NCBI RefSeq assembly: GCF_988242995.1 | Contig: NZ_OZ547043.1 | Reading direction: 5' to 3' (one strand) | Length of the DNA stretch: 64,000 bases | Position numbers and translations under genes: made by a program | Notes under the pieces: generated by a model | What the model saw: only the letters and a program-made list of their open reading frames with translations | What the model was told of the DNA's origin: nothing | Database searches by the model: none | Shown: positions 821 to 53,966 of the stretch, in pieces | Layout of the letters: each line of letters opens with the position of its first letter | How positions within the stretch are numbered: the first letter of the stretch is position 1

Positions 821-1603
821 TAATTTTTACGTTCAAGACAGTTGATTATCGGCGCATATGACTCAAAAAGAGCCTGATGATTGCCTCTTTTCCATAGGCT
901 CTTTCTCTGAAGTGAAGGAAGGCCCGGAAGAAAGCACTCGCTGGCATACGTGACTCCAGCTCAACCGGAGATAATCACCATTGTTATTTTTCTATTTAAT
1001 AATAATCTCCTGAAAAATAGATATAGCAAAAATACAATCCGGCCAGATTTAATTCCGCATTCATTACCAGAAACAATCAACACCACAACTATCATATCAT
1101 TCAATAGTAACTGCTAAAATTTTATTATTTCCCTCTTATTCACATAGAAATTGTCAACCTGTTTATTATGCCGCACTTAAATAGTTAATCACAAAACAAC
1201 ATCACCATTATTTGCGTGTTTTATTTATTAATAACATAGTCATACGTTCTTTTTTTACAAGGAAATAATCAATTGATAAATTGTTTTTGGTCTTAATAGT
1301 CAAGTAGGAAACATTTTAATAAATGATAAAAATCCTAAATTCCTTGTTCATAATGTAGGGGTGTGTTAAATAGGTGGGCAAAATTTGGTTCCCCTTCTCG
1401 CCTGTAATATTGCAGCATCTTCGCACCTCCATGAGACATTGCGACTTAATAAGAAGGTGATAAGTCCTGCATATAAGCATGGACTGACCATGGTTTTATA
1501 TTCATTAAAAATTTTGTTACAACCCATTGATTTAGCATAAATAAATTATAGTGGGTTCGGGTTTGTTGTGACTGTGGCATTATTTCCGTGCAAAGGAGCT
1601 GAT
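821..1603 (+). promoter_or_regulatory. AT-rich kps region 1 promoter / leader upstream of kpsF
   Basis: About 780 bp of roughly 30 percent GC non-coding DNA directly 5' of kpsF; candidate -10 CATAAT at 1349-1354. Region 1 promoters in group 2 capsule loci are known to lie about 0.2 kb upstream of kpsF and to be H-NS/SlyA/IHF controlled. Exact start site not determinable here. Confidence 0.4.
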
Positions 1604-2587: not shown

Positions 2588-2658
2588 TTAAGCAACGGGG
2601 TGCGAGAGGTTAGTCTCTCATTGAGTTTGCGCCCCACTGAAACTTTGATAATCGTTAC

Positions 2659-3807
2659 ATGTTGATAAAAGTGAAGTCTGCCGTATCCTGGATGCGTGCT
2701 CGTCTGTCTGCCATCTCACTGGCAGATATCCAAAAACACCTGGCGAAAATCATCATTCTGGCACCGATGGCGGTGCTGCTGATCTATCTGGCTATCTTCA
2801 GCCAGCCTCGCTATATGAGCGAGTCGAAAGTCGCCATTAAACGCTCGGATGATTTAAACAGCGGCAGCCTGAATTTTGGTCTGCTTCTGGGTGCCTCTAA
2901 CCCCAGTTCCGCAGAAGATGCGTTGTATCTGAAAGAGTACATCAACTCGCCGGATATGCTGGCGGCGCTGGATAAGCAACTAAATTTTCGTGAAGCGTTT
3001 AGCCACAGCGGGCTCGATTTTCTTAATCATCTTAGCAAGGATGAAACCGCAGAAGGCTTCCTGAAGTACTACAAGGACCGTATCAACGTCTCGTATGACG
3101 ATAAAACCGGATTACTGAATATTCAGACGCAGGGTTTTAGCCCGGAGTTTGCGCTTAAGTTTAACCAGACCGTGCTGAAAGAGTCAGAGCGCTTTATCAA
3201 TGAGATGTCACATCGCATCGCGCGTGACCAGCTTGCCTTTGCAGAAACGGAGATGGAAAAGGCACGCCAGCGTCTGGACGCCAGCAAAGCGGAATTGCTC
3301 TCTTATCAGGACAACAACAACGTTCTGGATCCACAGGCACAGGCACAGGCGGCGAGCACGTTAGTGAATACGCTGATGGGCCAGAAGATCCAGATGGAAG
3401 CGGACCTGCGGAACTTGCTGACGTATCTGCGTGAGGACGCCCCGCAAGTTGTGAGTGCGCGTAATGCGATTCAGTCATTGCAGGCACAAATTGACGAAGA
3501 AAAAAGCAAAATCACAGCGCCGCAGGGTGACAAGCTAAACCGTATGGCGGTGGATTTTGAAGAAATCAAATCAAAAGTAGAGTTCAACACCGAGCTGTAC
3601 AAACTGACCCTGACCTCCATTGAAAAGACCCGTGTAGAAGCGGCTCGTAAGCTCAAGGTGCTGTCAGTAATCAGTTCGCCACAGTTGCCGCAGGAATCGT
3701 CTTTTCCAAATATCCCTTATTTGATCGCCTGCTGGTTACTGGTGTGCTGCCTGCTGTTCGGCACCCTGAAACTGTTGCTGGCTGTTATTGAAGATCACCG
3801 AGACTAA
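2659..3807 (+). CDS. kpsE: KpsE, capsule export inner-membrane polysaccharide co-polymerase-like protein
   Basis: 382 aa, N- and C-terminal hydrophobic segments with a coiled-coil periplasmic domain; position between kpsF and kpsD. Confidence 0.9.
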   Translation: MLIKVKSAVSWMRARLSAISLADIQKHLAKIIILAPMAVLLIYLAIFSQPRYMSESKVAIKRSDDLNSGSLNFGLLLGASNPSSAEDALYLKEYINSPDMLAALDKQLNFREAFSHSGLDFLNHLSKDETAEGFLKYYKDRINVSYDDKTGLLNIQTQGFSPEFALKFNQTVLKESERFINEMSHRIARDQLAFAETEMEKARQRLDASKAELLSYQDNNNVLDPQAQAQAASTLVNTLMGQKIQMEADLRNLLTYLREDAPQVVSARNAIQSLQAQIDEEKSKITAPQGDKLNRMAVDFEEIKSKVEFNTELYKLTLTSIEKTRVEAARKLKVLSVISSPQLPQESSFPNIPYLIACWLLVCCLLFGTLKLLLAVIEDHRD

Positions 3808-3827
3808 CGCTGTCGCTGAATGAGTTT

Positions 3828-5507
3828 GTGATGAAATTATTTAAATCAATTTTACTGATTGCCGCCTGTCACGCGGCGCAGGCCAGCGCGGCCATTGATA
3901 TTAACGCTGACCCAAACCTTACAGGAGCCGCGCCGCTTACCGGTATTCTGAACGGGCAACAGTCGGATACGCAAAACATGAGCGGCTTCGACAATACCCC
4001 GCCGCCCGCACCGCCGGTGGTAATGAGCCGTATGTTTGGTGCTCAACTTTTCAACGGCACCAGCGCGGATAGCGGTGCGACGGTAGGATTCAACCCTGAC
4101 TATATTCTGAATCCGGGTGATAGCATTCAGGTTCGCTTGTGGGGTGCGTTCACCTTTGATGGTGCATTACAGATTGATCCCAAAGGTAATATTTTTCTGC
4201 CAAACGTTGGTCCGGTGAAAGTTGCCGGGGTTAGCAATAGTCAGTTGAACACTCTGGTTACATCAAAAGTGAAGGAAGTGTACCAGTCCAACGTCAACGT
4301 CTACGCCTCCTTATTACAGGCGCAGCCAGTAAAAGTGTACGTGACCGGATTTGTGCGTAATCCTGGTCTGTATGGCGGTGTGACGTCTGATTCGTTACTC
4401 AATTATCTGATCAAGGCTGGCGGCGTTGATCCAGAGCGCGGAAGTTACGTTGATATTGTGGTCAAGCGCGGTAACCGCGTGCGCTCCAACGTCAACCTGT
4501 ACGACTTCCTGCTGAACGGCAAACTGGGGCTTTCGCAGTTCGCCGATGGTGACACCATCATCGTCGGGCCGCGTCAGCATACTTTCAGCGTTCAGGGCGA
4601 TGTCTTTAACAGCTACGACTTTGAGTTCCGCGAAAGCAGCATTCCCGTAACGGAAGCGTTGAGCTGGGCGCGCCCTAAGCCTGGCGCGACTCACATTACG
4701 ATTATGCGTAAACAGGGGCTGCAAAAACGCAGCGAATACTATCCGATCAGTTCTGCGCCAGGCCGTATGTTGCAAAATGGCGATACCTTAATCGTGAGCA
4801 CTGACCGCTATGCCGGCACCATTCAGGTGCGGGTTGAAGGCGCACACTCCGGTGAACATGCCATGGTACTGCCTTATGGTTCCACTATGCGTGCGGTTCT
4901 GGAAAAAGTCCGTCCGAACAGCATGTCGCAGATGAACGCGGTTCAGCTTTATCGCCCATCAGTGGCTCAGCGTCAGAAAGAGATGCTGAATCTCTCGCTG
5001 CAAAAGCTGGAGGAAGCATCACTTTCTGCCCAGTCATCCACCAAAGAAGAAGCCAGCCTGCGAATGCAGGAAGCACAACTGATCAGCCGCTTTGTGGCGA
5101 AAGCACGCACCGTGGTTCCGAAAGGTGAAGTGATCCTCAACGAATCCAATATTGATTCTGTTCTGCTTGAAGATGGCGACGTCATCAATATTCCGGAGAA
5201 AACATCGCTGGTTATGGTTCATGGCGAAGTGCTGTTCCCGAACGCGGTGAGCTGGCAGAAGGGTATGACCACCGAGGATTACATCGAGAAATGTGGTGGC
5301 CTGACGCAAAAATCGGGTAACGCCAGAATTATCGTCATTCGTCAGAACGGTGCAGCCGTCAACGCAGAAGATGTGGATTCACTCAAACCGGGCGATGAGA
5401 TTATGGTTCTGCCGAAATATGAATCGAAAAATATTGAAGTTACCCGTGGTATTTCCACCATCCTCTATCAGCTGGCGGTGGGTGCAAAAGTGATTCTGTC
5501 TTTGTAA
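3828..5507 (+). CDS. kpsD: KpsD, capsule export outer-membrane/periplasmic protein
   Basis: 559 aa with N-terminal signal peptide (MMKLFKSILLIAACHAAQASAA); conserved position in region 1. Confidence 0.9.
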   Translation: MMKLFKSILLIAACHAAQASAAIDINADPNLTGAAPLTGILNGQQSDTQNMSGFDNTPPPAPPVVMSRMFGAQLFNGTSADSGATVGFNPDYILNPGDSIQVRLWGAFTFDGALQIDPKGNIFLPNVGPVKVAGVSNSQLNTLVTSKVKEVYQSNVNVYASLLQAQPVKVYVTGFVRNPGLYGGVTSDSLLNYLIKAGGVDPERGSYVDIVVKRGNRVRSNVNLYDFLLNGKLGLSQFADGDTIIVGPRQHTFSVQGDVFNSYDFEFRESSIPVTEALSWARPKPGATHITIMRKQGLQKRSEYYPISSAPGRMLQNGDTLIVSTDRYAGTIQVRVEGAHSGEHAMVLPYGSTMRAVLEKVRPNSMSQMNAVQLYRPSVAQRQKEMLNLSLQKLEEASLSAQSSTKEEASLRMQEAQLISRFVAKARTVVPKGEVILNESNIDSVLLEDGDVINIPEKTSLVMVHGEVLFPNAVSWQKGMTTEDYIEKCGGLTQKSGNARIIVIRQNGAAVNAEDVDSLKPGDEIMVLPKYESKNIEVTRGISTILYQLAVGAKVILSL

Positions 5508-5516
5508 GGAGTTGAG

Positions 5517-6257
5517 ATGAGCAAAGCAGTTATTGTCATTCCGGCTCGCTATGGCTCCTCGCGCCTGCCGGGTAAGCCACTGCTCGATATTGTTGGTAAA
5601 CCGATGATCCAGCATGTTTACGAGCGTGCGTTACAGGTGGCGGGCGTCGCAGAAGTTTGGGTGGCAACAGACGATCAGCGTGTTGAAAAGGCCGTGCAGG
5701 CATTTGGCGGGAAAGCCATCATGACGCGCAACGATCATGAATCCGGCACCGATCGGCTGGTCGAGGTGATGCATAAAGTCGAGGCAGATATCTACATTAA
5801 CCTGCAGGGCGACGAACCAATGATTCGCCCGCGGGATGTAGAAACGCTGCTACAAGGAATGCGTGATGATCCCGCGTTGCCAGTGGCAACGCTATGCCAC
5901 GCGATTTCTGCCGAAGAAGCGACCGAGCCAAGCACGGTAAAAGTAGTGGTAAATACCCGCCAGGATGCGCTTTATTTCAGCCGTTCGCCGATTCCGTATC
6001 CGCGTAATGCTGAAAAAGCGCGCTACCTGAAACACGTTGGTATTTACGCTTATCGTCGCGATGTGCTGCAAAACTACAGTCAGTTACCAAGGACGGCATT
6101 AAGTCAAATCGAGGAACTGGAGCAGCTACGGTTAATGAACGCGGGGATCAACATTCGCACATTTGAGGTTGCCGCAACCGGTCCGGGCGTCGACACCCCG
6201 GCATGCCTTGAAAAGGTGCGTGCCCTGATGGCGCAAGAACTGGCTGAAAACGCATGA
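5517..6257 (+). CDS. kpsU: KpsU, CMP-Kdo synthetase (capsule-specific KdsB paralogue)
   Basis: 246 aa, N-terminal [15 protein letters not shown] nucleotidyltransferase motif; ATGA overlap with kpsC. Confidence 0.9.
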
Positions 6258-8281
6258 TTGGCATTTACTCGCCTGGCATCTGGCGTATTCCGCATCTGGA
6301 GAAATTTCTGGCACAACCGTGCCAGAAACTTTCTCTGCTGCGTCCTGTTCCGCAAAACGTCGATGCTATCGCCGTGTGGGGACATCGTCCCAGCGCGGCG
6401 AAACCAGTCGCCATCGCCAAAGCAGCGGGAAAACCCGTCATTCGTCTGGAAGATGGATTTGTGCGTTCGCTGGATCTTGGCGTCAATGGCGAGCCGCCGC
6501 TTTCTCTGGTGGTGGATGATTGTGGCATTTACTACGATGCCAGCAAGCCTTCAGCACTGGAGAAACTGGTACAGGATAAAGCCGGAAATACAGCTCTGAT
6601 AAGCCAGGCCAGAGAAGCGATGCACACCATCGTGACCGGGGATTTGTCGAAATATAACCTGGCACCTGCGTTTGTGGCTGATGAGTCAGAACGTTCAGAC
6701 ATCGTTCTGGTTGTCGATCAGACATTTAATGATATGTCAGTGACGTATGGCAATGCTGGCCCGCATGAGTTTGCTGCCATGCTGGAAGCCGCGATGGCGG
6801 AAAATCCTCAAGCCGAAATTTGGGTGAAGGTGCACCCAGATGTACTGGAAGGAAAGAAAACAGGTTATTTCGCCGATCTGCGCGCCACGCAACGAGTACG
6901 TTTAATTGCCGAGAATGTCAGCCCGCAGTCGCTGTTGCGACACGTTTCCCGGGTTTACGTCGTGACCTCCCAGTACGGCTTTGAAGCCTTGCTGGCAGGA
7001 AAACCGGTGACATGCTTCGGCCAGCCCTGGTATGCAGGCTGGGGCTTAACCGACGATCGCCATCCGCAGTCCGCTTTGTTATCTGCCCGACGCGGTTCTG
7101 CCACGCTGGAGGAACTTTTTGCCGCTGCATACCTGCGTTACTGTCGCTATATCGATCCGCAAACGGGAGAAGTAAGCGATCTATTTACCGTGCTGCAATG
7201 GCTGCAATTACAACGTCGACATCTGCAACAGCGTAATGGTTATTTATGGGCGCCAGGCTTAACGCTGTGGAAGTCGGCAATCCTGAAACCTTTCTTGCGT
7301 ACCGCAACAAACAGACTGAGTTATTCACGCCGTTGTACTGCGGCGACGGCTTGCGTGGTATGGGGTGTAAAGGGAGAACAGCAATGGCGAGCCGAAGCGC
7401 AACAAAAATCACTGCCGTTATGGCGAATGGAAGATGGTTTTCTGCGTTCATCCGGACTTGGCTCTGACCTGCTGCCGCCGCTATCGTTGGTACTGGATAA
7501 ACGCGGGATCTACTATGACGCCACGCGCCCCAGCGACCTGGAAGTCCTGCTTAATCACAGCCAGTTAACGCTGGCGCAGCAGATGCGAGCTGAAAAATTA
7601 CGCCAGCGACTGGTTGAAAGCAAACTGAGCAAATACAACCTAGGGGCCGATTTTTCTCTGCCTGCCGAGGCCAAAGATAAAAAAGTTATCCTGGTGCCGG
7701 GTCAGGTAGAAGACGATGCCTCGATTAAAACCGGCACAGTCTCGATTAAGAGCAACCTTGAGTTATTACGCACAGTACGCGAGCGTAATCCGCACGCTTA
7801 CATTATTTATAAACCGCACCCGGATGTACTGGTGGGGAATCGCAAGGGCGATATTTCGGCAGAATTGACTGCTGAACTTGCTGACTATCAGGCACTGGAC
7901 GCAGATATTATTCAATGCATTCAGCGCGCAGATGAAGTGCACACCATGACATCATTGTCCGGGTTTGAAGCGTTATTACATGGCAAGCAAGTTCATTGTT
8001 ACGGCCTGCCCTTCTATGCCGGTTGGGGTTTAACCGTCGATGAACATCACTGCCCGCGCCGCGAACAAAAATTAACGTTAGCAGATTTGATCTATCAGGC
8101 GTTGATTGTTTATCCAACCTATATCCACCCAACACGGCTACAACCTATTACGGTTGAAGAGGCGGCGGAATATTTGATCCAGACGCCGCGCAAGCCGATG
8201 TTTATTACCCGAAAAAAAGCGGGGCGAGTAATACGCTATTACCGCAAATTAATTATGTTCTGCAAGGTCAGATTTGGCTAA
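6254..8281 (+). CDS. kpsC: KpsC, tandem beta-Kdo transferase building the capsule glycolipid anchor
   Basis: 675 aa with two repeated modules each containing an HPD motif ([22 protein letters not shown]) and a conserved GxEALLxGKxVxCxGxPxYAGWGLT block. Confidence 0.9.
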
Positions 8282-8315
8282 ACAATTTCATAGTTGACTA
8301 TTACGCAAATTATTT

Positions 8316-9563
8316 ATGCAAGACAACGCACTAACCATTTTATTATCGGGTAAAAAATATCTGCTATTGCAGGGGCCAATGGGACCCTTTTTCAATGACG
8401 TCGCCGAATGGTTAGAGTCATTAGGCCGTAACGCTGTGAATGTTGTCTTCAACGGCGGGGATCGTTTTTACTGCCGCCATCGACAATACCAGGCTTACTA
8501 CCAAACGCCGAAAGAGTTTCCCGGTTGGCTGCGAGATCTCCACCGACAATATGACTCTGATACCATCCTCTGCTTTGGTGACTGCCGCCCATTGCACAAA
8601 GAAGCAAAACGCTGGGCAAAGTCGAAAGGGATCCGCTTTCTGGCATTTGAAGAAGGATATTTACGCCCGCAATTTATAACCGTTGAAGAAGGCGGAGTGA
8701 ACGCATATTCATCGCTACCGCGCGACCCGGATTTTTATCGTAAGTTGCCAGATATGCCTGCGCCGCACGTTGAGAACTTAAAACCTTCAACGATGAAACG
8801 TATAGGTCATGCGATGTGGTATTACCTGATGGGTTGGCATTACCGTCATGAGTTCCCTCGCTACCGCCACCACAAATCATTTTCCCCGTGGTATGAAGCT
8901 CGTTGCTGGGTTCGTGCATACTGGCGCAAGCAACTTTACAAGGTAACACAGCGTAAGGTATTGCCGAGGTTAATGAATGAGCTGGATCAGCGTTATTATC
9001 TTGCCGTTTTGCAGGTGTATAACGATAGCCAGATTCGTAACCACAGCAATTATAACGATGTGCGTGACTATATTAATGAAGTCATGTACTCATTTTCGCG
9101 TAAAGCGCCAAAAGAAAGTTATTTGGTGATCAAACATCATCCGATGGATCGTGGTCACAGACTCTATCGACCATTAATTAAGCGGTTGAGTAAGGAATAT
9201 GGCTTAGGTGAGCGCGTCATTTATGTGCACGATCTCCCGATGCCGGAATTATTACGCCACGCAAAAGCGGTGGTGACGATTAACAGTACGGCGGGGATCT
9301 CTGCGTTGATTCATAATAAACCACTTAAAGTGATGGGCAATGCCCTGTACGACATCAAAGGCTTAACGTATCAAGGGCATTTGCACCAGTTCTGGCAGGC
9401 CGATTTTAAACCGGATATGAAACTGTTTAAGAAGTTTCGGGGGTATTTATTGATGAAGACGCAGGTTAATGCGGTTTATTATGGGGGAGTAAGCATTGGA
9501 GAAAAAAATAGGTATGAAAGTGATTACTCCTATTATTCAAAGAAACCGCATCATAATGACTAA
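8316..9563 (+). CDS. kpsS: KpsS, beta-Kdo transferase initiating the capsule glycolipid anchor
   Basis: 415 aa with KHHPMDRG and VVTINSTAGISALIHNKPLKVMGNALYD motifs; last gene of region 1. Confidence 0.85.
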   Translation: MQDNALTILLSGKKYLLLQGPMGPFFNDVAEWLESLGRNAVNVVFNGGDRFYCRHRQYQAYYQTPKEFPGWLRDLHRQYDSDTILCFGDCRPLHKEAKRWAKSKGIRFLAFEEGYLRPQFITVEEGGVNAYSSLPRDPDFYRKLPDMPAPHVENLKPSTMKRIGHAMWYYLMGWHYRHEFPRYRHHKSFSPWYEARCWVRAYWRKQLYKVTQRKVLPRLMNELDQRYYLAVLQVYNDSQIRNHSNYNDVRDYINEVMYSFSRKAPKESYLVIKHHPMDRGHRLYRPLIKRLSKEYGLGERVIYVHDLPMPELLRHAKAVVTINSTAGISALIHNKPLKVMGNALYDIKGLTYQGHLHQFWQADFKPDMKLFKKFRGYLLMKTQVNAVYYGGVSIGEKNRYESDYSYYSKKPHHND

Positions 9564-9672
9564 TAATTAGATAATCTACTAATTTTAATCAAAAAAAATA
9601 ATTATGTAAAACTAACTATATGGATTAATGTGTTCATTATCTTTAGTTGCTAAAAATTAGCAAGTTATATAT

Positions 9673-44744: not shown

Positions 44745-45683
44745 TCAAATCTGCTTTTCATACAATCGGTAACGCTTGTACGGCTCTGCCCCAATGCGTT
44801 CCAGCATGTTATTCATGCCTGTATTGGTTTCGAGGATCCATGACATTTCCAGCGCATCGATCTTCCGGCGGGCAAACGGATCGCGTAAGGCTTCAATCAA
44901 TAACAGCGCAATCACCGGGCCGATGCGGCTAAACTGATACTCGTCCCGCACGCCCATCAGCGGTACTCGCGCAGTTCGCACACCGCTGACTTTTAAACGC
45001 CACAGCAATTTTGCCCAGCCGAAGGGAAAGAGCGATCCGTTCAGATCGGCAATCGCCTCGTTGATGTTTGGCAAGCCAACAATAAACGCGCAGGGTGCAG
45101 AATCAATCTCAGCGATGTAGATCATATCGTCCGGCACCAGATATTTAAGTTGATCGCCCATAGTCGCGAATTCATGTTCGGTAAACGGCACAAATCCCCA
45201 GTTGTGCTGCCAGCCAGAGTTGAAAATCTCACGCAGGATCTGCATCTCTTCGGCAAACCGCTGGCGATTGATGCAGCGAATGGTCACCTTCTTACGCACC
45301 TGATCCATCAGTTTTTTTAGCGCCGGAGAGAAAGTGAGATCGGTTCGCTGCATCCACCACGCTAGTAAATCAATGCCTTTGTGATAACCCAATTGTTCAA
45401 TATGCGCGGCATACCACGGTTTACCGTGCGGCATCATCGCACAGGGTGGTGTATCGAAACCTTCAATCAGTAATCCGCTTTCCTGATTGATATTCAGGCT
45501 GAAAGGACCGCTGATCTTACTTGCACCTTGTGACTTCAACCACGCTTCCGCTGCGCCAAACAACGCGGCAAAAACCTGCGGATCATCAATGGCGTCAATC
45601 ATGCCGAAATGACCGGTATCTTCACCGTAACGCTCGCGGTGCAAGGTATCTATTTGCACGGTAATACGCCCAACTATCTGCCC
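44745..45683 (-). pseudogene. yghO: yghO, C-terminal 312 codons, separated from its N-terminus by IS4
   Basis: Frame stays open from 45683 down to the stop at 44745 and is in phase with the N-terminal fragment at 47123-47326 once IS4 plus one copy of the target duplication are removed. Confidence 0.75.
45671..45683. repeat. Left copy of the 13-bp IS4 target-site duplication CAACTATCTGCCC
   Basis: Identical 13-mer at 47110-47122 immediately flanking the other IS4 end. Confidence 0.85.
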
Positions 45684-47109
45684 TAATGCCGATCAGTTAA
45701 GGATCAGTTGACCGATCCAGTGGCTGTGTAAGAATCCGGAAACGCTCACTTGTTTCCGGATTTTTTTATGCACATTGGACAGGCTCTTGATCTGGTATCC
45801 CGTTACGATTCTCTGCGTAACCCACTGACTTCTCTGGGGGATTACCTCGACCCCGAACTCATCTCTCGTTGCCTTGCCGAATCAGGTACTGTAACGCTAC
45901 GCAAGCGCCGTCTTCCCCTCGAAATGATGGTCTGGTGTATTGTTGGCATGGCGCTTGAGCGTAAAGAACCTCTTCACCAGATTGTGAATCGCCTGGACAT
46001 CATGCTGCCGGGCAATCGCCCCTTCGTTGCCCCCAGTGCCGTTATTCAGGCCCGCCAGCGCCTGGGAAGTGAGGCTGTCCGCCGCGTGTTCACGAAAACA
46101 GCGCAGCTCTGGCATAACGCCACGCCGCATCCGCACTGGTGCGGCCTGACCCTGCTGGCCATCGATGGTGTGTTCTGGCGCACACCGGATACACCAGAGA
46201 ACGATGCAGCCTTCCCCCGCCAGACACATGCCGGGAACCCGGCGCTCTACCCGCAGGTCAAAATGGTCTGCCAGATGGAACTGACCAGCCATCTGCTGAC
46301 GGCTGCAGCCTTCGGCACGATGAAGAACAGCGAAAATGAGCTTGCTGAGCAACTTATAGAACAAACCGGCGATAACACTCTGACGTTAATGGATAAAGGT
46401 TATTACTCACTGGGACTGTTAAATGCCTGGAGCCTGGCGGGAGAACACCGCCACTGGATGATACCTCTCAGAAAGGGAGCGCAATATGAAGAGATCAGAA
46501 AACTGGGTAAAGGCGATCATCTGGTGAAGCTGAAAACCAGCCCGCAGGCACGAAAAAAGTGGCCGGGACTGGGAAATGAAGTGACTGCCCGCCTGCTGAC
46601 CGTGACGCGCAAAGGAAAAGTCTGCCATCTGCTGACGTCGATGACGGACGCCATGCGCTTCCCCGGAGGAGAAATGGGGGATCTGTACAGTCATCGCTGG
46701 GAAATCGAACTGGGATACAGGGAGATAAAACAGACGATGCAACGGAGCAGGCTGACGCTGAGAAGTAAAAAGCCGGAGCTTGTGGAGCAAGAGCTGTGGG
46801 GTGTCTTACTGGCTTATAATCTGGTGAGATATCAGATGATTAAAATGGCGGAACATCTGAAAGGTTACTGGCCGAATCAACTGAGTTTCTCAGAATCATG
46901 CGGAATGGTGATGAGAATGCTGATGACATTGCAGGGCGCTTCACCGGGACGTATACCGGAGCTGATGCGCGATCTTGCAAGTATGGGACAACTTGTGAAA
47001 TTACCGACAAGAAGGGAAAGGGCCTTCCCGAGAGTGGTAAAGGAGAGGCCCTGGAAATACCCCACAGCCCCGAAAAAGAGCCAGTCAGTTGCTTAACTGA
47101 CTGGCATTA
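45684..47109 (+). mobile_element. IS4, complete 1426-bp copy
   Basis: Terminal inverted repeats TAATGCCGATCAGTTAAG (45684-45701) and CTTAACTGACTGGCATTA (47092-47109); length exactly 1426 bp; flanked by 13-bp direct repeats. Confidence 0.85.
45768..47096 (+). CDS. insG: IS4 transposase (DDE family)
   Basis: 442 aa from [16 protein letters not shown]..., recalled as the IS4 transposase; the track ORF adds six residues upstream. Confidence 0.85.
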
Positions 47110-47326
47110 CAACTATCTGCCCCGCTTTTTTTGCCACCCACGCCTGCCAGATGATATGGTCCGTCCCCGGATTTTTCGCAGACAAATGCTCGTTGCGTTC
47201 AATGAATAAAGGGGGTATCCAGTTTGGATCGTCGGGATAAAGTGATGACGGAAAAGCGATAAATGCCTTAAGGTCATTTTTATTAATTACTTTTTCAATT
47301 TTAATCATCAGCAGATCGCATTCCAT
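47110..47326 (-). pseudogene. yghO: yghO N-terminal fragment (68 codons) plus right copy of the IS4 target duplication
   Basis: MECDLLMIKIEKVINKNDLKAFIAF... reads in frame into the duplicated 13-mer (47110-47122), then terminates inside IS4 in the track ORF. Confidence 0.75.
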
Positions 47327-47697
47327 AGTTCTGTGGGTAACAAATAATTAACGGTGACAAACAGGTTGCAACAGCAACGAACGGCACCTTAATAATCAAC
47401 CCAATGAATACAAACGACGAATAAATAGTATTTATTAATGATTACGATAAGGTTAGAGACTACACAGAAGCGCCACAATGCCTTTTGTCGATTTAAGGCG
47501 ACCGGACAAGGCTTATTCTTAATATATTCATAAATTAAATATCATTCACAATAAAAACAAAAAAACTCAAACTCATTATTTAAATCAATGTTCATTTTCA
47601 CACTGATGAAAATACTATCTCATTTATCTTTTATGCCTATATAATCCACCGCATTATTGTCATTTTATTTTTGATATCCAATTTTTTCGTGGTGTAT

Positions 47698-49422
47698 ATG
47701 TCTAATAAAATCTTTACGCATTCCCTACCTATGCGCTATGCCGATTTTCCAACGCTGGTTGATGCTTTGGACTACGCCGCTCTGAGTAGCGCCGGAATGA
47801 ATTTTTATGACAGACGTTGCCAACTTGAAGATCAACTGGAATATCAGACGTTAAAAGCGCGTGCCGAAGCTGGTGCGAAGCGGTTGTTATCGCTGAACCT
47901 GAAAAAAGGCGATCGCGTGGCGCTGATTGCCGAAACCAGTAGCGGGTTCGTAGAGGCTTTTTTTTCCTGCCAGTATGCCGGCTTAGTCGCCGTCCCGTTG
48001 GCGATTCCAATGGGCGTCGGTCAGCGGGATTCCTGGAGCGCCAAACTGCAGGGTTTACTGGCAAGTTGCCAGCCCGCAGCCATTATCACTGGTGATGAGT
48101 GGTTACCGCTGGTCAATGCCGCGACGCATAACAACAACCCCGAATTACATGTTTTAAGCCACGCCTGGTTTAAGGCATTACCGGAAGCCGATGTTGCGCT
48201 CCAGCGTCCAGTTCCGAACGATATCGCCTACCTCCAGTACACCTCCGGCAGCACCCGTTTTCCCCGTGGCGTCATTATCACCCATCGCGAAGTGATGGCT
48301 AATCTACGTGCTATAAGCCACGATGGCATTAAATTACGCCCTGGCGACCGCTGCGTCTCCTGGCTGCCTTTCTACCATGATATGGGACTGGTCGGCTTTC
48401 TCCTGACCCCCGTCGCCACGCAGCTCTCAGTAGATTATTTGCGCACTCAGGATTTTGCCATGCGTCCTCTGCAATGGCTTAAATTGATCAGTAAAAATCG
48501 CGGCACCGTTTCCGTTGCGCCGCCGTTTGGCTATGAATTGTGCCAGCGCCGCGTGAATGAAAAAGATCTCGCTGAACTGGATCTTTCCTGCTGGCGCGTT
48601 GCTGGTATTGGTGCTGAGCCGATCTCCGCAGAACAACTCCATCAATTCGCTGAATGTTTCCGTCAGGTTAACTTTGACGATAAAACTTTCATGCCGTGCT
48701 ACGGACTGGCAGAAAATGCGCTGGCTGTCAGCTTCTCTGATGAAGCCTCCGGGGTTGTGGTTAACGAAGTGGATCGCGACATCCTTGAATATCAGGGCAA
48801 AGCCGTCGCGCCGGGTGCTGAAACACGCGCCGTATCGACTTTCGTCAACTGCGGTAAAGCGTTGCCGGAACATGGCATTGAAATCCGCAATGAAGCAGGT
48901 ATGCCGGTCGCGGAACGTGTGGTAGGCCATATTTGCATCTCCGGCCCTAGCCTGATGAGCGGTTACTTTGGCGACCAGATTTCACAAGACGAGATTGCCG
49001 CGACGGGCTGGTTAGACACCGGCGACCTCGGTTATCTGCTGGACGGTTATCTGTATGTCACCGGACGCATTAAAGATCTGATTATTATTCGTGGCCGTAA
49101 TATCTGGCCGCAGGATATTGAATATATTGCGGAACAGGAACCGGAAATTCATTCTGGCGATGCGATTGCTTTTGTTACCGCCCAGGAAAAAATCATTCTG
49201 CAGATCCAGTGTAGGATCAGCGACGAAGAACGTCGTGGGCAGCTTATCCACGCACTGGTAGCACGGATCCAAAGCGAATTTGGCGTAACAGCGGCTATCG
49301 ATCTGTTGCCGCCCCACAGTATTCCCCGAACGTCCTCCGGCAAGCCTGCCCGTGCGGAAGCGAAAAAACGTTATCAGAAGGCTTATGCTGCAAGCCTTCA
49401 TGTGCAGGAATCCCTGGCATGA
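47698..49422 (+). CDS. Fatty acyl-AMP ligase / acyl-ACP synthetase-like adenylating enzyme
   Basis: AMP-binding core motif YTSGSTRFPRGV; about 575 aa. Start uncertain (track uses TTG at 47671; first ATG is 47698). Confidence 0.7.
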   Translation: MSNKIFTHSLPMRYADFPTLVDALDYAALSSAGMNFYDRRCQLEDQLEYQTLKARAEAGAKRLLSLNLKKGDRVALIAETSSGFVEAFFSCQYAGLVAVPLAIPMGVGQRDSWSAKLQGLLASCQPAAIITGDEWLPLVNAATHNNNPELHVLSHAWFKALPEADVALQRPVPNDIAYLQYTSGSTRFPRGVIITHREVMANLRAISHDGIKLRPGDRCVSWLPFYHDMGLVGFLLTPVATQLSVDYLRTQDFAMRPLQWLKLISKNRGTVSVAPPFGYELCQRRVNEKDLAELDLSCWRVAGIGAEPISAEQLHQFAECFRQVNFDDKTFMPCYGLAENALAVSFSDEASGVVVNEVDRDILEYQGKAVAPGAETRAVSTFVNCGKALPEHGIEIRNEAGMPVAERVVGHICISGPSLMSGYFGDQISQDEIAATGWLDTGDLGYLLDGYLYVTGRIKDLIIIRGRNIWPQDIEYIAEQEPEIHSGDAIAFVTAQEKIILQIQCRISDEERRGQLIHALVARIQSEFGVTAAIDLLPPHSIPRTSSGKPARAEAKKRYQKAYAASLHVQESLA

Positions 49423-50333
49423 ATCAAACTGTCGCGGTGACGGGCGCTACCGGGTTTATCGGTAAATATATTATCGATAACCTGCTCGCCCGCGGCTTTC
49501 ACGTTCGCGCATTGACGCGTACTGCCCGCGCTCACGTCAATGACAATCTCATCTGGGTGCGCGGTTCTCTGGAAGATACTCATTCACTTAGCGAACTGGT
49601 TGCCGGAGCCAGCGCGGTGGTCCATTGCGCCGGACAAGTGCGCGGGCACAAAGAAGAGATTTTTACCCGCTGTAACGTTGACGGCAGCCTGCGACTGATG
49701 CAAGCGGCAAAAGAGAGCGGCTTTTGCCAACGTTTTCTGTTTATCTCTTCGCTGGCGGCGCGCCATCCCGAACTCTCCTGGTACGCAAATTCCAAACACG
49801 TCGCCGAACAACGGCTGACTGCAATGGCTGATGAAATTACGCTGGGCGTTTTTCGTCCGACAGCCGTGTATGGTCCCGGCGATAAAGAGTTAAAACCGCT
49901 GTTTGACTGGATGCTGCGCGGCCTGCTGCCACGACTTGGTGCGCCAGATACACAACTCTCTTTCCTGCACGTCACCGATTTTGCGCAAGCAGTGGGTCAG
50001 TGGTTAAACGCCGAAACTGTACAGACGCAAACCTATGAATTATGCGATGGCGTCGCTGGCGGCTATGACTGGCAACGCGTACGACAGCTTGCCGCCGAAG
50101 CCCGTTGTGGTTCTGTGCGGATGGTTGGCATTCCTCTGCCGCTACTCACCTGCCTTGCGGATATCAGTACTGCGTTGAGTCGCCTGGCAGGTAAAGAACC
50201 TATGCTGACCCGCTCGAAAATTCGTGAATTAACCCACGCCGACTGGTCGGCAAATAATAACCGTATTTCTGAAGATATTAATTGGTTTCCCGGGATTAGC
50301 CTGGAACACGCATTACGCAACGGGCTATTTTGA
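49419..50333 (+). CDS. NAD(P)-dependent reductase of the extended SDR (epimerase/dehydratase) family
   Basis: N-terminal Rossmann motif TGATGFIG and catalytic YANSK (YxxxK); ATGA overlap with the upstream ligase. Confidence 0.7.
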   Translation: MNQTVAVTGATGFIGKYIIDNLLARGFHVRALTRTARAHVNDNLIWVRGSLEDTHSLSELVAGASAVVHCAGQVRGHKEEIFTRCNVDGSLRLMQAAKESGFCQRFLFISSLAARHPELSWYANSKHVAEQRLTAMADEITLGVFRPTAVYGPGDKELKPLFDWMLRGLLPRLGAPDTQLSFLHVTDFAQAVGQWLNAETVQTQTYELCDGVAGGYDWQRVRQLAAEARCGSVRMVGIPLPLLTCLADISTALSRLAGKEPMLTRSKIRELTHADWSANNNRISEDINWFPGISLEHALRNGLF

Positions 50334-50364: not shown

Positions 50365-50613
50365 ATGGTAAATCGTGAAATAGTAATGGATTACATCCTT
50401 TCCTGTTTACAGGATTTGGTCGAAAACGGTGTGGAAATTAAGCCCGACAGCGATCTCGTCAACGATCTTGGCCTGGAGTCGATCAAAGTGATGGATCTCT
50501 TAATGATGCTGGAAGACAGATTCGATATTTCCATTCCTATTAATATTCTGCTGGATGTCAAAACCCCTGCGCAATTAATGGAAACACTACTTCCATGGCT
50601 GGAGAATAAATAA
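50365..50613 (+). CDS. Acyl carrier protein
   Basis: 82 aa four-helix-sized protein with phosphopantetheine-site-like DLGLESIKVMDL. Confidence 0.65.
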   Translation: MVNREIVMDYILSCLQDLVENGVEIKPDSDLVNDLGLESIKVMDLLMMLEDRFDISIPINILLDVKTPAQLMETLLPWLENK

Positions 50614-51785
50614 TGGGGCTATACGATAAATATGCGCGCCTTGCTGGCGAGCGACTGCAATTTAGTGACAACGGGTTAACACCGTTTGGCACCTGTATTG
50701 ATGAAGTGTATTCCGCCACCGAAGGTCGGATCGGCAATAAAAAAGTGATTCTGGCCGGGACCAATAATTATCTCGGTTTAACCTTTAATCATGATGCCAT
50801 CGCCGAAGGTCAGGCAGCATTAGCGGCCCAAGGCACCGGCACCACCGGTTCTCGTATGGCAAACGGCAGTTATGCGCCGCATCTGGCGTTAGAGAAAGAG
50901 ATCGCCGAGTTTTTTAATCGCCCTACCGCTATCGTTTTTTCAACCGGTTATACCGCTAATTTAGGCGTCATCAGCGCACTTGCCGACCATAACGCCGTGG
51001 TGTTACTGGATGCCGACAGCCACGCCAGTATTTATGACGCCTGTTCTCTCGGTGGCGCGGAAATTATTCGTTTCCGCCATAACGATGCTAAAGATCTGGA
51101 ACGGCGCATGGTTCGCCTCGGTGAACGGGCAAAAGAGGCGATTATCATCGTTGAAGGCATCTACAGTATGCTCGGTGACGTTGCGCCGCTGGCGGAAATT
51201 GTTGATATCAAACGTCGTCTCGGTGGTTATTTGATTGTCGATGAAGCGCATTCGTTTGGCGTGTTAGGCGCAACGGGGCGCGGACTGGCTGAAGCCGTTG
51301 GCGTTGAAGATGATGTGGATATTATCGTTGGTACTTTCAGTAAAAGTCTGGCCTCGATTGGCGGTTTTGCTGTCGGTTCGGAAGCGATGGAAGTGCTGCG
51401 CTACGGCAGCCGCCCGTATATTTTTACCGCCTCTCCTTCTCCGTCCTGCATTGCGACCGTGCGCTCGTCGTTAAGAACCATTGCTACACAACCAGAGTTG
51501 CGGCAAAAGCTGATGGATAATGCCAACCATCTGTATGACGGTCTGCAAAAACTGGGTTATGAGTTAAGTTCACATATTAGCCCGGTAGTGCCAGTAATAA
51601 TCGGTTCGAAAGAGGAAGGTTTACGCATCTGGCGCGAGCTTATTTCGCTGGGCGTTTATGTGAATCTTATCCTGCCACCTGCCGCGCCTGCAGGCATCAC
51701 GCTGCTGCGCTGTAGCGTAAACGCTGCCCACAGTCGTGAGCAAATCGATGCCATCATTCAGGCATTTGCTACTCTGAAGCAGTAA
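50613..51785 (+). CDS. PLP-dependent alpha-oxoamine synthase (serine palmitoyltransferase / 8-amino-7-oxononanoate synthase family)
   Basis: 390 aa with the family blocks FSTGYTANLG, HASIYDA, DEAHSFGVLG and the PLP-lysine motif GTFSKSLASIGGF; TAATG overlap with the ACP gene. Confidence 0.75.
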   Translation: MGLYDKYARLAGERLQFSDNGLTPFGTCIDEVYSATEGRIGNKKVILAGTNNYLGLTFNHDAIAEGQAALAAQGTGTTGSRMANGSYAPHLALEKEIAEFFNRPTAIVFSTGYTANLGVISALADHNAVVLLDADSHASIYDACSLGGAEIIRFRHNDAKDLERRMVRLGERAKEAIIIVEGIYSMLGDVAPLAEIVDIKRRLGGYLIVDEAHSFGVLGATGRGLAEAVGVEDDVDIIVGTFSKSLASIGGFAVGSEAMEVLRYGSRPYIFTASPSPSCIATVRSSLRTIATQPELRQKLMDNANHLYDGLQKLGYELSSHISPVVPVIIGSKEEGLRIWRELISLGVYVNLILPPAAPAGITLLRCSVNAAHSREQIDAIIQAFATLKQ

Positions 51786-51819: not shown

Positions 51820-52899
51820 TTAATGTTGACTGTCATACCAATACACCAGGCTCAACGCCACCAGCACAAACACTATCGGTAAACCGAGCGCGGTAACAGG
51901 TGCGCTCAACGCAAATAACAATCCCAGATTGACCATGATTTGATAGCTGATCCAGGTGAGTAAGCCAACGATGACGCCTACAGCGAGACGGCTACCCATC
52001 CCTGGCGAGCGCGGGGCGCTAAAGGTAAACGGCACAGCCAGCAAAATCATCGCCAGAGTTAAGATGGGTTGCCCCAGTTTTTCCCACAGTGCAAGGCGGT
52101 AATCGCTGCTGGGTTGCCCGGTTTCCTGCAAATAATGGATGTAATGATTAAGCTGACGGACAGAAAAAGTATTCCCCGGCATCGATAACTCTTCAAGATC
52201 CATACTGGTGAAGGCCGATTGCCAGGCAAGATTATCTGATGTTTCCAGCGTTTCTTTGCCATTCAACCATTTTTTATGATTCACACCATGCAGGATCCAC
52301 GTTTTGTCGTCTTCAATGGAGGCACTGCGTGCAAAAATGTAGGATTCGAGCGAGAGATCGTCGCGATAATGAAATATCTCCACGCCCACAGGCTGGCCCT
52401 GCTCGTTCAGCGATTTCACCGTCACAAATTCATTACCGCGCCTGGCCCAAAGCATATTGCCGGTAATGTCATCGTCCTCCCCCAACGCGGTGGCAGTCGA
52501 TTTGATTTGCAGCGCCTGTTGCTGCAATGGCGACGCCACCCACTCATCTATCGCGCCTAACGAAACAGTCCACAATATCCCGGCAACCAGCGCCACCAGT
52601 GCAATACGGAAGATAGAAAACCCAGTGCTGCGAATGGCGGTAAGCTCACTGTTTTTCGATAACTGCCCCAGGCCAACAATCCCTCCCAATAATGCGATAA
52701 ACGGCGAAAGTTCGACCAGTGTACGCGGTAAGGTCATCAGCACCACCAGCACCGCCTGAGTCCAGCGATAACCACCCGGGCTGACATCATCCAGTTCGTT
52801 AATCAGGTTGAAGGTGGTAAAAAGCGGCAGCAATAGCCCTGCGGCGGCGGCAAAACCGAGAAAGAGATGACGGATTAAATAGCGACTGAAAACATTCAT
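51820..52899 (-). CDS. LptG/LptF-family (YjgP/YjgQ) permease, second of a pair
   Basis: Start set to MNVFSRYLIRHLF (ATGA overlap with the upstream paralogue); six-helix permease-like hydrophobicity with a large periplasmic loop. Confidence 0.65.
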   Translation of the reverse strand: MNVFSRYLIRHLFLGFAAAAGLLLPLFTTFNLINELDDVSPGGYRWTQAVLVVLMTLPRTLVELSPFIALLGGIVGLGQLSKNSELTAIRSTGFSIFRIALVALVAGILWTVSLGAIDEWVASPLQQQALQIKSTATALGEDDDITGNMLWARRGNEFVTVKSLNEQGQPVGVEIFHYRDDLSLESYIFARSASIEDDKTWILHGVNHKKWLNGKETLETSDNLAWQSAFTSMDLEELSMPGNTFSVRQLNHYIHYLQETGQPSSDYRLALWEKLGQPILTLAMILLAVPFTFSAPRSPGMGSRLAVGVIVGLLTWISYQIMVNLGLLFALSAPVTALGLPIVFVLVALSLVYWYDSQH

Positions 52900-53966
52900 C
52901 GGGAAAATTTCTGCAGCAATGAGAAGTCGCGTGCGACCAGCATCAGCAGGCCCATTAGCATGAGTCCGGGTACTAACCACAAACCAGGAATGAGGGGAAT
53001 CGCGCCGTTAGCCACCAGCGTACGGCAGACGTCGCCGCCATAAAAAATGGCAATAAACAGCAACGTCAGTGGCAATAATGTTGAAAATCGCCCTTGCCGC
53101 GGTTTTACCCGACTTAATGAAATGGCCAGCAGCGCCATCAACAATGCTGTCAGGCCACGGCTTTGTCGCCATTGCAGTTCGGCATGATCGGCTGGAAAGA
53201 CGGAGCGCGCCAGCTCCGTGACCGATTTTGCTTTGCGTTTGACGTTAGGGCTTTGATCCAGCGGATTCAGATGTAATTGCAGATTACGGTAGATCTGTTC
53301 GTTGTCGTCACGCCCCTGATGATCGAGAAGATAGGCGGTCCCGTTATGCAACATAACGGTCGGTTTCTCAGGTGATGGGTCAACCACATCAACCGAACGG
53401 GCGCGGAAAATGCGGGTTCGATTGGCAGTAGAAGTATAAATCAGCGCGTCAGTCAGGCGATTATTATCCTGATCAACCGTCTGCGAAAGGATCATTCGTC
53501 CGTTATCGTTAGTGTTAAATTTCTTTGCCCGCAACTGGCGAACATCCAGCTCCGACTGTGACTGTTGCTCCAGTTGATAAATCTGCGCATAAGCCCACGG
53601 ACGACCATACATCGACAGAAGGGTGACAAAAATACTTAGCGGTATCGCCAGATAAAGAACGGCTTTGTACAAGCGTCCCGGACTGCCCCCCGCCGCAGAA
53701 ATAGCGGTAATTTCCGAGTCGGTATACATCTGCCCTAGCGTCACGCCAACTGACACATACAGTCCAACAGGTAACAACATCTCCAGTGCAATCAGCACCT
53801 TGTAGAAAACAATATCCAGCACAACATCAAGAGCTAATGTCCCATTTGCCGCTTCGGTCAGATAACGCTGTGCGGAGTAGCTGGCGAAAATAAAGATCAG
53901 AAAACCGACGATAATCAGCACCAGACGGCGCGTACCACGCATGATGTAGTGTTCAACCAGCTTCAT
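52896..53966 (-). CDS. LptF/LptG-family (YjgP/YjgQ) permease, first of a pair
   Basis: 356 aa beginning MKLVEHYIMRGTRRLVLIIVGFLIF, same family architecture as the downstream paralogue. Confidence 0.65.
   Translation of the reverse strand: MKLVEHYIMRGTRRLVLIIVGFLIFIFASYSAQRYLTEAANGTLALDVVLDIVFYKVLIALEMLLPVGLYVSVGVTLGQMYTDSEITAISAAGGSPGRLYKAVLYLAIPLSIFVTLLSMYGRPWAYAQIYQLEQQSQSELDVRQLRAKKFNTNDNGRMILSQTVDQDNNRLTDALIYTSTANRTRIFRARSVDVVDPSPEKPTVMLHNGTAYLLDHQGRDDNEQIYRNLQLHLNPLDQSPNVKRKAKSVTELARSVFPADHAELQWRQSRGLTALLMALLAISLSRVKPRQGRFSTLLPLTLLFIAIFYGGDVCRTLVANGAIPLIPGLWLVPGLMLMGLLMLVARDFSLLQKFSR

Follow-up and report, generated by a model that had tools for sequence, protein, structure and literature searches.

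An IS4 insertion at a preferred and recurrently used target in yghO, a predicted ceramide-synthase gene of Escherichia coli

In the stretch of DNA analyzed here (64,000 nucleotides of contig NZ_OZ547043.1, RefSeq assembly GCF_988242995.1; hereafter the window), the yghO gene is split by an insertion sequence and lies next to a divergent operon of lipid genes. This locus raises the question of what inserted, what was lost by it, and whether the event is peculiar to one strain. We conclude that it is very probably a canonical IS4 knock-out of the predicted ceramide-synthase gene yghO, at a preferred target that IS4 has used repeatedly.

The initial annotation described a 1426-bp element with 18-bp terminal inverted repeats and an intact 442-aa transposase, enclosed by two identical 13-bp direct repeats. 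All these parts were found where it had placed them, with the refinement that the terminal repeats are imperfect. The element and the sequences that adjoin it consist of the following features:

45671..45683, no strand assigned: left copy of the 13-bp target-site duplication, CAACTATCTGCCC; present as a single copy at the empty site of E. coli LR-31
45684..47109, plus strand: complete IS4, 1426 bp, a base-for-base match to the curated K-12 IS4
45684..45701, plus strand: left terminal inverted repeat of IS4, 18 bp, matching the right end at 16 of 18 positions
45731..45767, plus strand: strong hairpin with seven consecutive T after it, just 5' of the transposase ATG (inverted repeat; RNA fold)
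45768..47096, plus strand: intact IS4 transposase gene (insG), 442 aa (Pfam domains; protein identical to K-12 InsG)
47080..47105, minus strand: terminator-like hairpin in the right end of IS4, followed on the minus strand by TCTTTTT (terminator scan; fold)
47092..47109, plus strand: right terminal inverted repeat of IS4, pairing with the left end
47110..47122, no strand assigned: right copy of the 13-bp target-site duplication, CAACTATCTGCCC, a direct repeat

All 1426 bases of the element agree with those of the IS4 copy curated for E. coli K-12 MG1655, and the IS4 copy of strain 14EC029 is also identical to it. Its ends (TAATGCCGATCAGTTAAG / CTTAACTGACTGGCATTA) are complementary at 16 of 18 positions. 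The single DDE orf runs from the ATG at 45768 to the stop codon at 47094-47096, and its product matches the Pfam families Nterm_IS4 (PF13006, 3e-33) and DDE_Tnp_1 (PF01609, 2.8e-31). The RefSeq annotation of this protein has 448 aa, with an upstream TTG taken as the start. The predicted folding energy of the hairpin preceding the gene is -23.5 kcal/mol (z = -5.7), and this structure may block or sequester read-through transcripts coming into IS4 from outside. The hairpin in the right end (-18.7 kcal/mol, z = -5.3) was picked up by the terminator scan. Reference identity, length, imperfect 18-bp ends, an orf with the IS4 N-terminal domain, a target duplication lying outside the element and insertion at the conserved arms characteristic of IS4 targets all agree: the element is a standard copy of IS4 (IS4 family, IS4 subgroup).

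Transposition in the IS4 family proceeds by cut-and-paste. The K-12 MG1655 copy (insG, b4278) shares with the window copy its sequence, its ends, its 442-aa transposase and duplications of 12-13 bp, but it is flanked by CAGAACCAAGAT in the yjgZ-nanX interval, whereas the window copy is flanked by CAACTATCTGCCC inside yghO. The window copy is presumably active, since identical copies sit at many sites and insertions in yghO recur.

The 13-bp sequence occurs only at 45671-45683 and 47110-47122 in the whole 64-kb window. The repeat is exactly 13 bp long and the bases beyond it differ; the chance that a given 13-mer recurs at a set position is 4^-13, or about 1.5e-8. At the empty site of E. coli LR-31 the 13-mer is present once, and six other IS4 copies as well as the K-12 reference copy are flanked by different repeats of 12-13 bp. 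Therefore, the repeats are a target duplication and not a part of IS4. Their length is in line with the family description, in which the duplication spans about one helical turn, 11-13 bp (PMC2266710).

When the element and one repeat were deleted in silico, the two parts of the gene (68 and 312 codons) fused in frame into a yghO of 1143 bp and 380 codons with no internal stop, the junction reading ...AKKAGQIVGRITVQIDTL..., which reproduces the reconstruction first proposed for this locus. It was compared with the annotated yghO of E. coli LR-31 (WP_000388786.1). The alignment is gapless and runs end to end (1143/1143 bases aligned), with 10 nucleotide differences and a single amino acid difference, V77 in the window versus A77 in LR-31. 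Alanine stands at this position in more than 90% of the family, so that yghO might have been impaired even before IS4 arrived. The same allele as in the window was found uninterrupted and normally annotated in H46. As for the start of the gene, homologues in other genera have a length of 374 aa, and the family aligns from residue 7-10 onwards; for this reason the biological start may be Met7 (47308) instead of 47326.

The insertion was also claimed to be recent, and it does look so, since the duplication is perfect, the split gene carries no secondary damage and none of 5,426 complete genomes has the allele. The identity of the element itself says little about its age because IS4 copies are homogeneous across strains.

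The remains of yghO and the region upstream of it are arranged as follows:

44745..45683, minus strand: C-terminal fragment of yghO, codons 69-380 and the stop codon; its last 13 bases are the left duplication copy (tblastn; reconstruction)
47093..47326, minus strand: chimeric 77-aa orf, YghO residues 1-72 followed by VMPVS and a stop codon from the right end of IS4; diagnostic of the insertion and of its orientation
47327..47697, no strand assigned: yghO-aasR intergenic region, 371 bp, intact and AT-rich (about 40% GC), with no promoter created by the junction (sequence)

A tblastn search with intact YghO placed residues 1-72 at 47326-47111 and residues 69-380 at 45683-44748, the latter with 99.7% identity; the overlap of four residues corresponds to the duplicated target. 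The insertion splits codons 69-73, directly before the invariant G73-R74-I75 motif of the N-terminal GNAT domain. The inactivation of yghO by IS4 proposed in the initial annotation stands. It is the sole broken gene of the cluster, its neighbours being full length in comparison with LR-31.

These neighbours are:

47698..49422, plus strand: aasR, fatty acyl-AMP ligase / specialised acyl-ACP synthetase, intact (NCBIfam NF006624, 870 bits; full length in comparison with LR-31)
49419..50333, plus strand: cerR/epi, reductase of the NAD-dependent epimerase/dehydratase family, intact (ECD_02852; full length in comparison with LR-31)
50365..50613, plus strand: acpR, specialised acyl carrier protein, intact (ECD_02853; full length in comparison with LR-31)
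50613..51785, plus strand: spt, serine palmitoyltransferase, intact (NCBIfam equivalog NF047599, 600 bits, cut-off 500)
51820..53966, minus strand: lptG and lptF paralogues, intact, in overlapping genes at 51820-52899 and 52896-53966 (matched to LR-31)

Thus, the divergent lipid operon is the sphingolipid (ceramide) cluster aasR-cerR-acpR-spt, followed by the lptF/G paralogues. An aryl-polyene cluster was considered as the identity of this operon and rejected on comparison with the LR-31 cluster. The aasR gene is the orthologue of ECD_02851 (PMC9386255), and 3-oxo-sphinganine was reported when cloned E. coli cluster genes were expressed (PMC9386255). By analogy with the LptF/G homologues of Caulobacter, for which an exporter role was described (bioRxiv 10.64898/2026.04.12.717747), the paralogues are probable subunits of a sphingolipid exporter. 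The cluster is covered to at least 80% in 4,057 complete E. coli genomes, out of 5,160 that match it and 5,426 in total (about three quarters).

The function of YghO was approached through its fold, its genomic context and published orthology. No Pfam or NCBIfam model matches the protein, and a sequence search of the PDB returned no relative of solved structure. Its AlphaFold model (pLDDT 95.7, pTM 0.92) has a tandem-GNAT fold, that of an acyl-CoA N-acyltransferase, and the top Foldseek matches in the PDB are the tandem-GNAT enzymes 2wpw, 5kf1, 7q3a and MshD 1ozp, with E-values down to 5e-16. Linkage of the gene to spt, acpR, aasR, cerR and the lptF/G paralogues is conserved in distant taxa. 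Homologues with 46% and 44% identity, from a Kiloniellaceae MAG and a 3.1-Mb contig, adjoin genes for Aminotran_1_2, AMP-binding, Epimerase, two LptF_LptG, DAGK_cat and FA_hydroxylase proteins. Two metagenomic homologues (P0173 and P0181) have a partial lipid-gene context on contigs too short to include spt.

In the literature, yghO (ECD_02850) is given as the orthologue of Caulobacter crescentus CC_1154, with an E-value of 1e-107, 44% identity and 98% coverage (PMC9386255, Fig. 9 legend and Table S2); the supplements of PMC11324152 hold no table of E. coli orthologues. CC_1154 (= CCNA_01212; bCerS / CerS / Aca) is of the soluble acyl-CoA N-acyltransferase type, as is predicted for YghO, and both genes are clustered with spt, acpR, aasR, cerR and lptF/G paralogues. 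The E. coli cluster is compact, with yghO divergent from aasR, whereas CC_1154 is located several genes away from CC_1162-1165, in a different transcription unit of the CC_1152-CC_1168 region, which comprises 17 genes. Genetic evidence for the N-acylation of 3-oxo-sphinganine/sphinganine to (oxidised) dihydroceramide comes only from Caulobacter. On the basis of the published orthology and the modelled fold, YghO is a predicted ceramide synthase of the CC_1154 / bCerS family. In K-12 it is labelled as a putative DNA-binding transcriptional regulator. This label is contradicted by the tandem-GNAT enzyme fold and, judged by fold, synteny and published orthology, is almost certainly wrong.

The likely course of events can be outlined from these data. 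The DDE transposase of IS4 made staggered cuts 13 bp apart at a strongly preferred quasi-palindromic target in yghO, of the form AAAAACG-n-CAGC...GCTG-n-CGTTTTT, and CAACTATCTGCCC was duplicated on insertion. The disrupted gene would yield only the 77-aa chimeric stub; its transcript probably ends at the hairpin of the IS end, about 30 nt into IS4, and the remaining 312 codons are left with neither promoter nor start codon. If the cluster is expressed at all, N-acylation would be lost and the pathway would be expected to stall at 3-oxo-sphinganine or sphinganine, with no ceramide formed.

Inactivation of this cluster by an insertion sequence has precedents in K-12 lineages, namely the yghO'-IS5LO-'yghQ deletion of MG1655 and acpR::IS5 of NCM3722. 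These differ from the window in that the element is IS5 and the positions are others; in MG1655 about 7 kb were lost and the N-terminus of yghO was replaced by IS5-derived sequence. In contrast, the window carries a simple insertion that is reversible in principle and leaves all other genes intact.

The yghO::IS4 junction was absent from the complete RefSeq E. coli genomes (0/5,426). The region of the site has no match in 884 of them, and among the 4,542 complete genomes that carry the region it is uninterrupted at this site in 4,527. Neither orientation of the junction pattern was found among GTDB species representatives. The exact 77-aa chimeric orf is present on 37 public contigs, and a chimera of the opposite orientation on five; these junctions were checked base by base. 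Other short N-terminal YghO fragments that fall into the same protein cluster are truncations by contig ends or frameshifts and do not represent additional IS4 junctions. One sequence, L017, agrees with the left end of IS4 at the junction but loses the match deeper inside the element (135 mismatches over 273 nt), which was treated as an indel or an assembly problem.

The flanks of the carriers form at least seven haplotypes, 44-166 SNPs apart over 4.2 kb, and forward and reverse alleles occur on flanks separated by 0-2 SNPs. Identity to the window over 4.2 kb was seen in a single Logan assembly, ERR15423959; the best identities of complete genomes to the flanks are 98.2-98.8%. These data point to a mutational hotspot that IS4 has struck independently in many E. 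coli backgrounds and in both orientations, not to one inherited lesion.

The recurrence is explained by the fit of the site to the target preference of IS4. We aligned seven IS4 sites, that of yghO and six others (ycaL-aroA, yfcC, a phosphodiester glycosidase gene, melR, php and degS-mdh). All have conserved arms and 12-13-bp duplications, and the other chromosomal insertions are, like the yghO copy, 1426 bp long. The arms AAAAC(G)C/G and C/A(C)GTTTT and the core CAnC...TGCC(C/G) are common to the yghO site and the others. A scoring matrix built leave-one-out from the six other sites ranked the yghO site first among 187,587 positions in the window (18.6 bits versus a mean of -23, sd 9). Thus, the yghO site is an IS4 hotspot, described here for the first time. 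It differs from the ycaL-aroA and phosphodiester glycosidase sites, which are occupied in several complete genomes, in that it is occupied in none of the 5,426 and only sporadically in drafts.

It was further claimed that the insertion probably affects transcription of the divergent lipid operon. This was not borne out: the intergenic region 47327-47697 is intact, and a scan for promoter-like sequences found four sites versus 3.8 expected by chance, none of them created by the IS4 junction. An alternative in which the main effect falls on aasR-cerR-acpR-spt, through read-through activation from the transposase gene or through disturbance of a shared regulation, is therefore unlikely, even if some features would suit it. 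The transposase gene and aasR lie on the same strand, no canonical plus-strand terminator was found between the transposase stop (47096) and aasR (47698), and the hairpin of the right end has no T-run directly after it on the plus strand. One may speculate that weak read-through from the co-oriented transposase gene could reach the operon. However, IS4 is inserted within yghO, 204 bp into its coding sequence, and ends 588 bp before the ATG of aasR. The opposite orientation also exists at this site, so that an orientation-dependent effect on the operon would not be general, and YghO, whose K-12 label could hint at a regulatory effect, is by its fold an enzyme and not a regulator.

It can also be asked whether recurrent insertions are held by selection, loss of ceramide being adaptive in some niches and IS4 acting as a convergent, possibly reversible off-switch. 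Independent insertions in at least seven backgrounds and in both orientations speak for this, as do the degradation of the cluster by IS5 in K-12 lineages, the 884 complete genomes that do not match the region of the site and the presence of at least 80% of the cluster in only 4,057 of the 5,160 matching genomes. We nevertheless regard such selection as quite improbable: the site can be predicted from target preference alone, none of the carrier lineages has expanded and the allele is rare, being absent from the complete genomes and limited to 37 + 5 contigs out of a collection that comprises billions of genes. The stronger proposal, that codons 69-73 of yghO are a recurrent, in-principle-reversible switch which silences E. 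coli ceramide synthesis under selection, appears very improbable. If it were true, host immunity, phage or polymyxin-type agents would be candidate selective agents, excision between the 13-bp repeats would restore yghO, and IS4 at yghO would serve as a natural indicator of the circumstances in which sphingolipids are important to E. coli.

It is highly improbable that the carriers go back to one old insertion, passed on by descent or by homologous recombination. Several carriers do share contigs of about 16.9 kb and near-identical flanks, suggesting clonal groups, but both orientations are found at the same junction, and the IS end that meets a given flank cannot be exchanged by recombination between IS copies. 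In addition, flanks differ by 8-40 SNPs within 600 bp of the junction and the allele is absent from all complete genomes. Misplacement of the IS by an assembly or scaffolding artefact has a negligible probability. IS4 is multi-copy (as many as 33 places per genome were matched when the search included the yghO flanks) and short-read contigs break at it, but the 13-bp duplication is perfect, the reconstruction is in frame and the junction recurs in NCBI, ENA and Logan assemblies that are independent of one another, including one that shows no difference from the window over 4.2 kb.

The reading we prefer is thus that of a real, apparently recent and ordinary IS4 knock-out of yghO. The sole unusual point is the repeated use of the same spot in unrelated strains. 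Otherwise the feature is commonplace: an insertion sequence that is already known disrupts a non-essential accessory gene. Strains that carry yghO::IS4 naturally and have an otherwise intact cluster can serve directly as mutants for the question of whether ceramides are made by E. coli. The site is also a clean natural example of strict target choice by IS4, repeated and in both orientations, and, as convergent IS insertions can mimic selection, the yghO hotspot is useful when such insertions are interpreted.

The 13 bp direct repeat CAACTATCTGCCC is located at 45671–45683 and 47110–47122, with no third copy in the window, and its length is exactly 13 bp since the adjoining bases differ between both copies. 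The 1426 bp lying between the repeats end in 18 bp termini (16/18 complementary) and contain a transposase orf of 442 codons starting with ATG at 45768, with Pfam matches to Nterm_IS4 and DDE_Tnp_1. Judged by its sequence, the inserted element is IS4 itself: all 1426 bases coincide with the curated "insertion sequence:IS4" of Escherichia coli K-12 MG1655, and the InsG protein is identical. A second identical copy was found in the ycaL/aroA interval of strain 14EC029. Such identity is weak evidence of the age of the insertion.

When the element is deleted together with one repeat copy, a 1143 bp orf of 380 codons results, with the junction ...AKKAGQIVGRITVQIDTL... In E. coli LR-31, used as the empty-site reference, yghO is uninterrupted (annotated as "protein YghO", WP_000388786.1, 380 aa). 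The reconstructed gene aligns with it end to end, without gaps over 1143 nt, and differs by 10 substitutions and one amino acid change. Furthermore, CAACTATCTGCCC is present in a single copy at the LR-31 empty site, while six other IS4 copies, and likewise the K-12 copy, are flanked by different 12–13 bp repeats; the direct repeats are therefore a target duplication and not a part of the IS. Thus, the repeats, the element with its terminal repeats, the 442-codon orf and the reconstruction junction are all present as the initial annotation described them, and its reading, an IS4 insertion in a yghO gene that is intact in other respects, holds. With a 400 bp probe, the empty-site region was revealed in 4,542 of 5,426 complete E. 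coli genomes, and it was uninterrupted in 4,527 of those. In the window, yghO is the sole split gene, all others from glcC to pitB being full length (tblastn).

Codon 77 of the window allele (45657–45659, minus strand) encodes Val (GTG) instead of Ala as in LR-31; Ala is near-invariant at this position (>90% of a 55-member family alignment). The same 400 bp sequence with Val77 occurs in the uninterrupted yghO of strain BEC1-S17-ESBL-09, so this substitution pre-dates the IS4 insertion or is independent of it. The annotated start of the 380 aa product (47326) is located six codons upstream of Met7. As the orthologues from Serratia, Pantoea, Citrobacter and others have 374 aa, and family members (approximately 375–390 aa) align from query residue 7–10, the true start may be 47308. 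The best matches of the insertion flanks (30000–60000) among the 5,426 complete RefSeq E. coli genomes were 98.2% on the sslE-glc-yghO side and 98.8% on the sphingolipid cluster side. The window also contains a probable group-2 capsule (kps) locus at 1568–17362, with gene identities taken from orf sizes alone, and an sRNA gene:

1568–9563, plus strand: row of genes of kpsFEDUCS size
Middle of the capsule locus: serotype-specific region with orfs of 530, 1112 and 231 aa
Minus strand: genes of kpsT and kpsM size, preceded by the JUMPstart element
17324–17362: JUMPstart element (Rfam RF01707, 53.6 bits)
37060–37281, plus strand: full-length C0719 sRNA (Rfam RF00117, 296.8 bits) in the glc region, between orfs 35299–36981 and 37336–39507

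The duplication spans codons 69–72 and the first base of G73, directly before G73-R74-I75, a motif that is invariant or nearly so. In the AlphaFold model this segment is the turn between strands 58–67 and 70–80 of the first GNAT domain. The upstream remnant is a chimeric orf of 77 aa, composed of 72 YghO residues and VMPVS from the IS end, while the downstream 312 codons lack both a promoter and a start. On the yghO strand, the right end of IS4 contains a hairpin with an 11 bp stem followed by TCTTTTT, which would terminate the yghO transcript. The yghO::IS4 allele is a null allele.

YghO is labeled as a putative DNA-binding regulator in K-12, and as YghO or N-acetyltransferase in RefSeq and other sources. 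No match was found among Pfam and NCBIfam models and PDB sequences; the family is large (1,118 clusters at E ≤ 1e-30 in an exhaustive HMMER search). For YghO, AlphaFold gave a model of very high confidence from an alignment of 55 sequences (pLDDT 95.7, pTM 0.92), and the top PDB fold matches of this model are tandem-GNAT N-acyltransferases (2wpw, 5kf1, 7q3a, and MshD 1ozp and 2c27). In Padilla-Gomez et al. (PMC9386255), "yghO ECD_02850" is listed as orthologous to Caulobacter CC_1154 (E 1e-107, 44% identity, 98% coverage), an N-acyltransferase required for dihydroceramide synthesis. This enzyme, named bCerS or CerS, is cytoplasmic and peripherally membrane-associated, and has been proposed to acylate 3-ketosphinganine.

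The products of the divergent operon are a fatty acyl-AMP ligase, a reductase of the NAD-dependent epimerase/dehydratase family, an acyl carrier protein and serine palmitoyltransferase (Spt; 600 bits on the NCBIfam equivalog, whose cut-off is 500). LptG and LptF paralogues follow this operon. Exactly these genes were described in E. coli BL21(DE3) as aasR, epi, acpR and spt (ECD_02851-02854), and co-expression of E. coli AasR, AcpR and Spt yielded 3-oxo-sphinganine (PMC9386255). LptF/G homologues of the Caulobacter locus are reportedly needed for sphingolipid transport (bioRxiv 10.64898/2026.04.12.717747). YghO homologues from a Kiloniellaceae MAG and a 3.1-Mb contig (46 and 44% identity) adjoin AMP-binding, Epimerase, two LptF_LptG, DAGK_cat, FA_hydroxylase and Aminotran_1_2 genes. 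Given the tandem-GNAT fold, the published orthology and the linkage to sphingolipid genes, YghO is best regarded as the candidate ceramide synthase of an E. coli sphingolipid cluster and not as a regulator.

The yghO locus is prone to IS insertions. In MG1655 (NC_000913.3, 3129043–3131340), IS5 replaces the yghO N-terminus and a deletion reaches into yghQ; the 5' end of K-12 yghO (b2981) continues into IS5LO. This gene is labeled "putative DNA-binding transcriptional regulator"; its fold, gene neighborhood and published orthologue indicate a tandem-GNAT acyltransferase truncated by IS5, so the label looks like a misannotation. About 7 kb of the cluster persists in K-12 NCM3722, where the acyl-carrier gene contains IS5 (PMC3045373).

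An effect of IS4 on transcription of the divergent operon, as initially proposed, is unsupported rather than refuted. The IS4 end lies 204 bp within yghO, the aasR ATG follows 588 bp further downstream, and the 371 bp AT-rich intergenic region is untouched. A scan for promoter-like sequences revealed four sites against 3.8 expected, and none was created at the junction. Weak read-through is conceivable from the sequence, as the transposase gene is oriented towards aasR with no plus-strand terminator in between, but IS4 occupies the yghO site in the opposite orientation too.

At unrelated loci, megablast alignments continued for 10–26 bp past the ends of the IS, a hint that the flanks are similar. 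Six further IS4 sites (ycaL-aroA, yfcC, a phosphodiester glycosidase gene, melR, php and degS-mdh) all had 12–13 bp duplications, and they have in common a CAnC...TGCC(C/G) core flanked by the arms AAAAC(G)C/G and C/A(C)GTTTT. An IS4 target consensus, AAA-N20-TTT, is said to have been proposed in the 1980s. When a symmetrised position weight matrix from those six sites alone was scanned over the IS-free window (duplication lengths 11–13), the yghO site ranked first among 187,587 positions, with 18.6 bits (mean −23, sd 9). The runner-up, caaaagagagCGGCTTTTGCCAacgttttctg (17.4 bits), lies within cerR, the reductase gene of the sphingolipid cluster, at about 49718 (48279 in empty-site coordinates).

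The 77 aa chimera serves as a specific marker of the position and orientation of this insertion. It was found exactly on 37 contigs (NCBI, ENA and Logan assemblies), most of which stop within the IS, as short-read assemblies do. In the eight forward loci listed, the IS4 right end directly follows GGGCAGATAGTTG with no mismatches. These loci represent six flank haplotypes, 44–118 SNPs apart over 4.2 kb, including 8–20 SNPs in the 600 bp adjoining the junction; only one of them, Logan ERR15423959, matches the window without any difference. The chimera predicted for the opposite orientation (...VMPIS) was present on five contigs, where the same base is joined to the left end of IS4. Some forward and reverse alleles have flanks that differ by only 0–2 SNPs (L007 versus L019; L006 versus L017 and L020; all public contig loci). 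Recombination between IS copies keeps each flank on the same IS end, so the two orientations require separate transposition events. In the reverse carrier L017 (4218–4490; GCA_003145675.1, NBDL01000066.1) the IS4 left end matches at the junction and is followed by 135 mismatches in 273 nt (ungapped), probably due to an indel or assembly problem inside the IS.

Counted as combinations of haplotype and orientation, the independent insertion events number about eight. The literature search revealed no paper linking IS4 with yghO. IS4 is a known element, and so are its mechanism and target preference; the yghO::IS4 allele and the hotspot status of the site appear undocumented, yet are instances of known behavior. 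IS4 is absent from this site in either orientation in the complete RefSeq genomes; thus, the insertions are sporadic and rare, as expected of a mutational hotspot at which the resulting alleles fail to spread.
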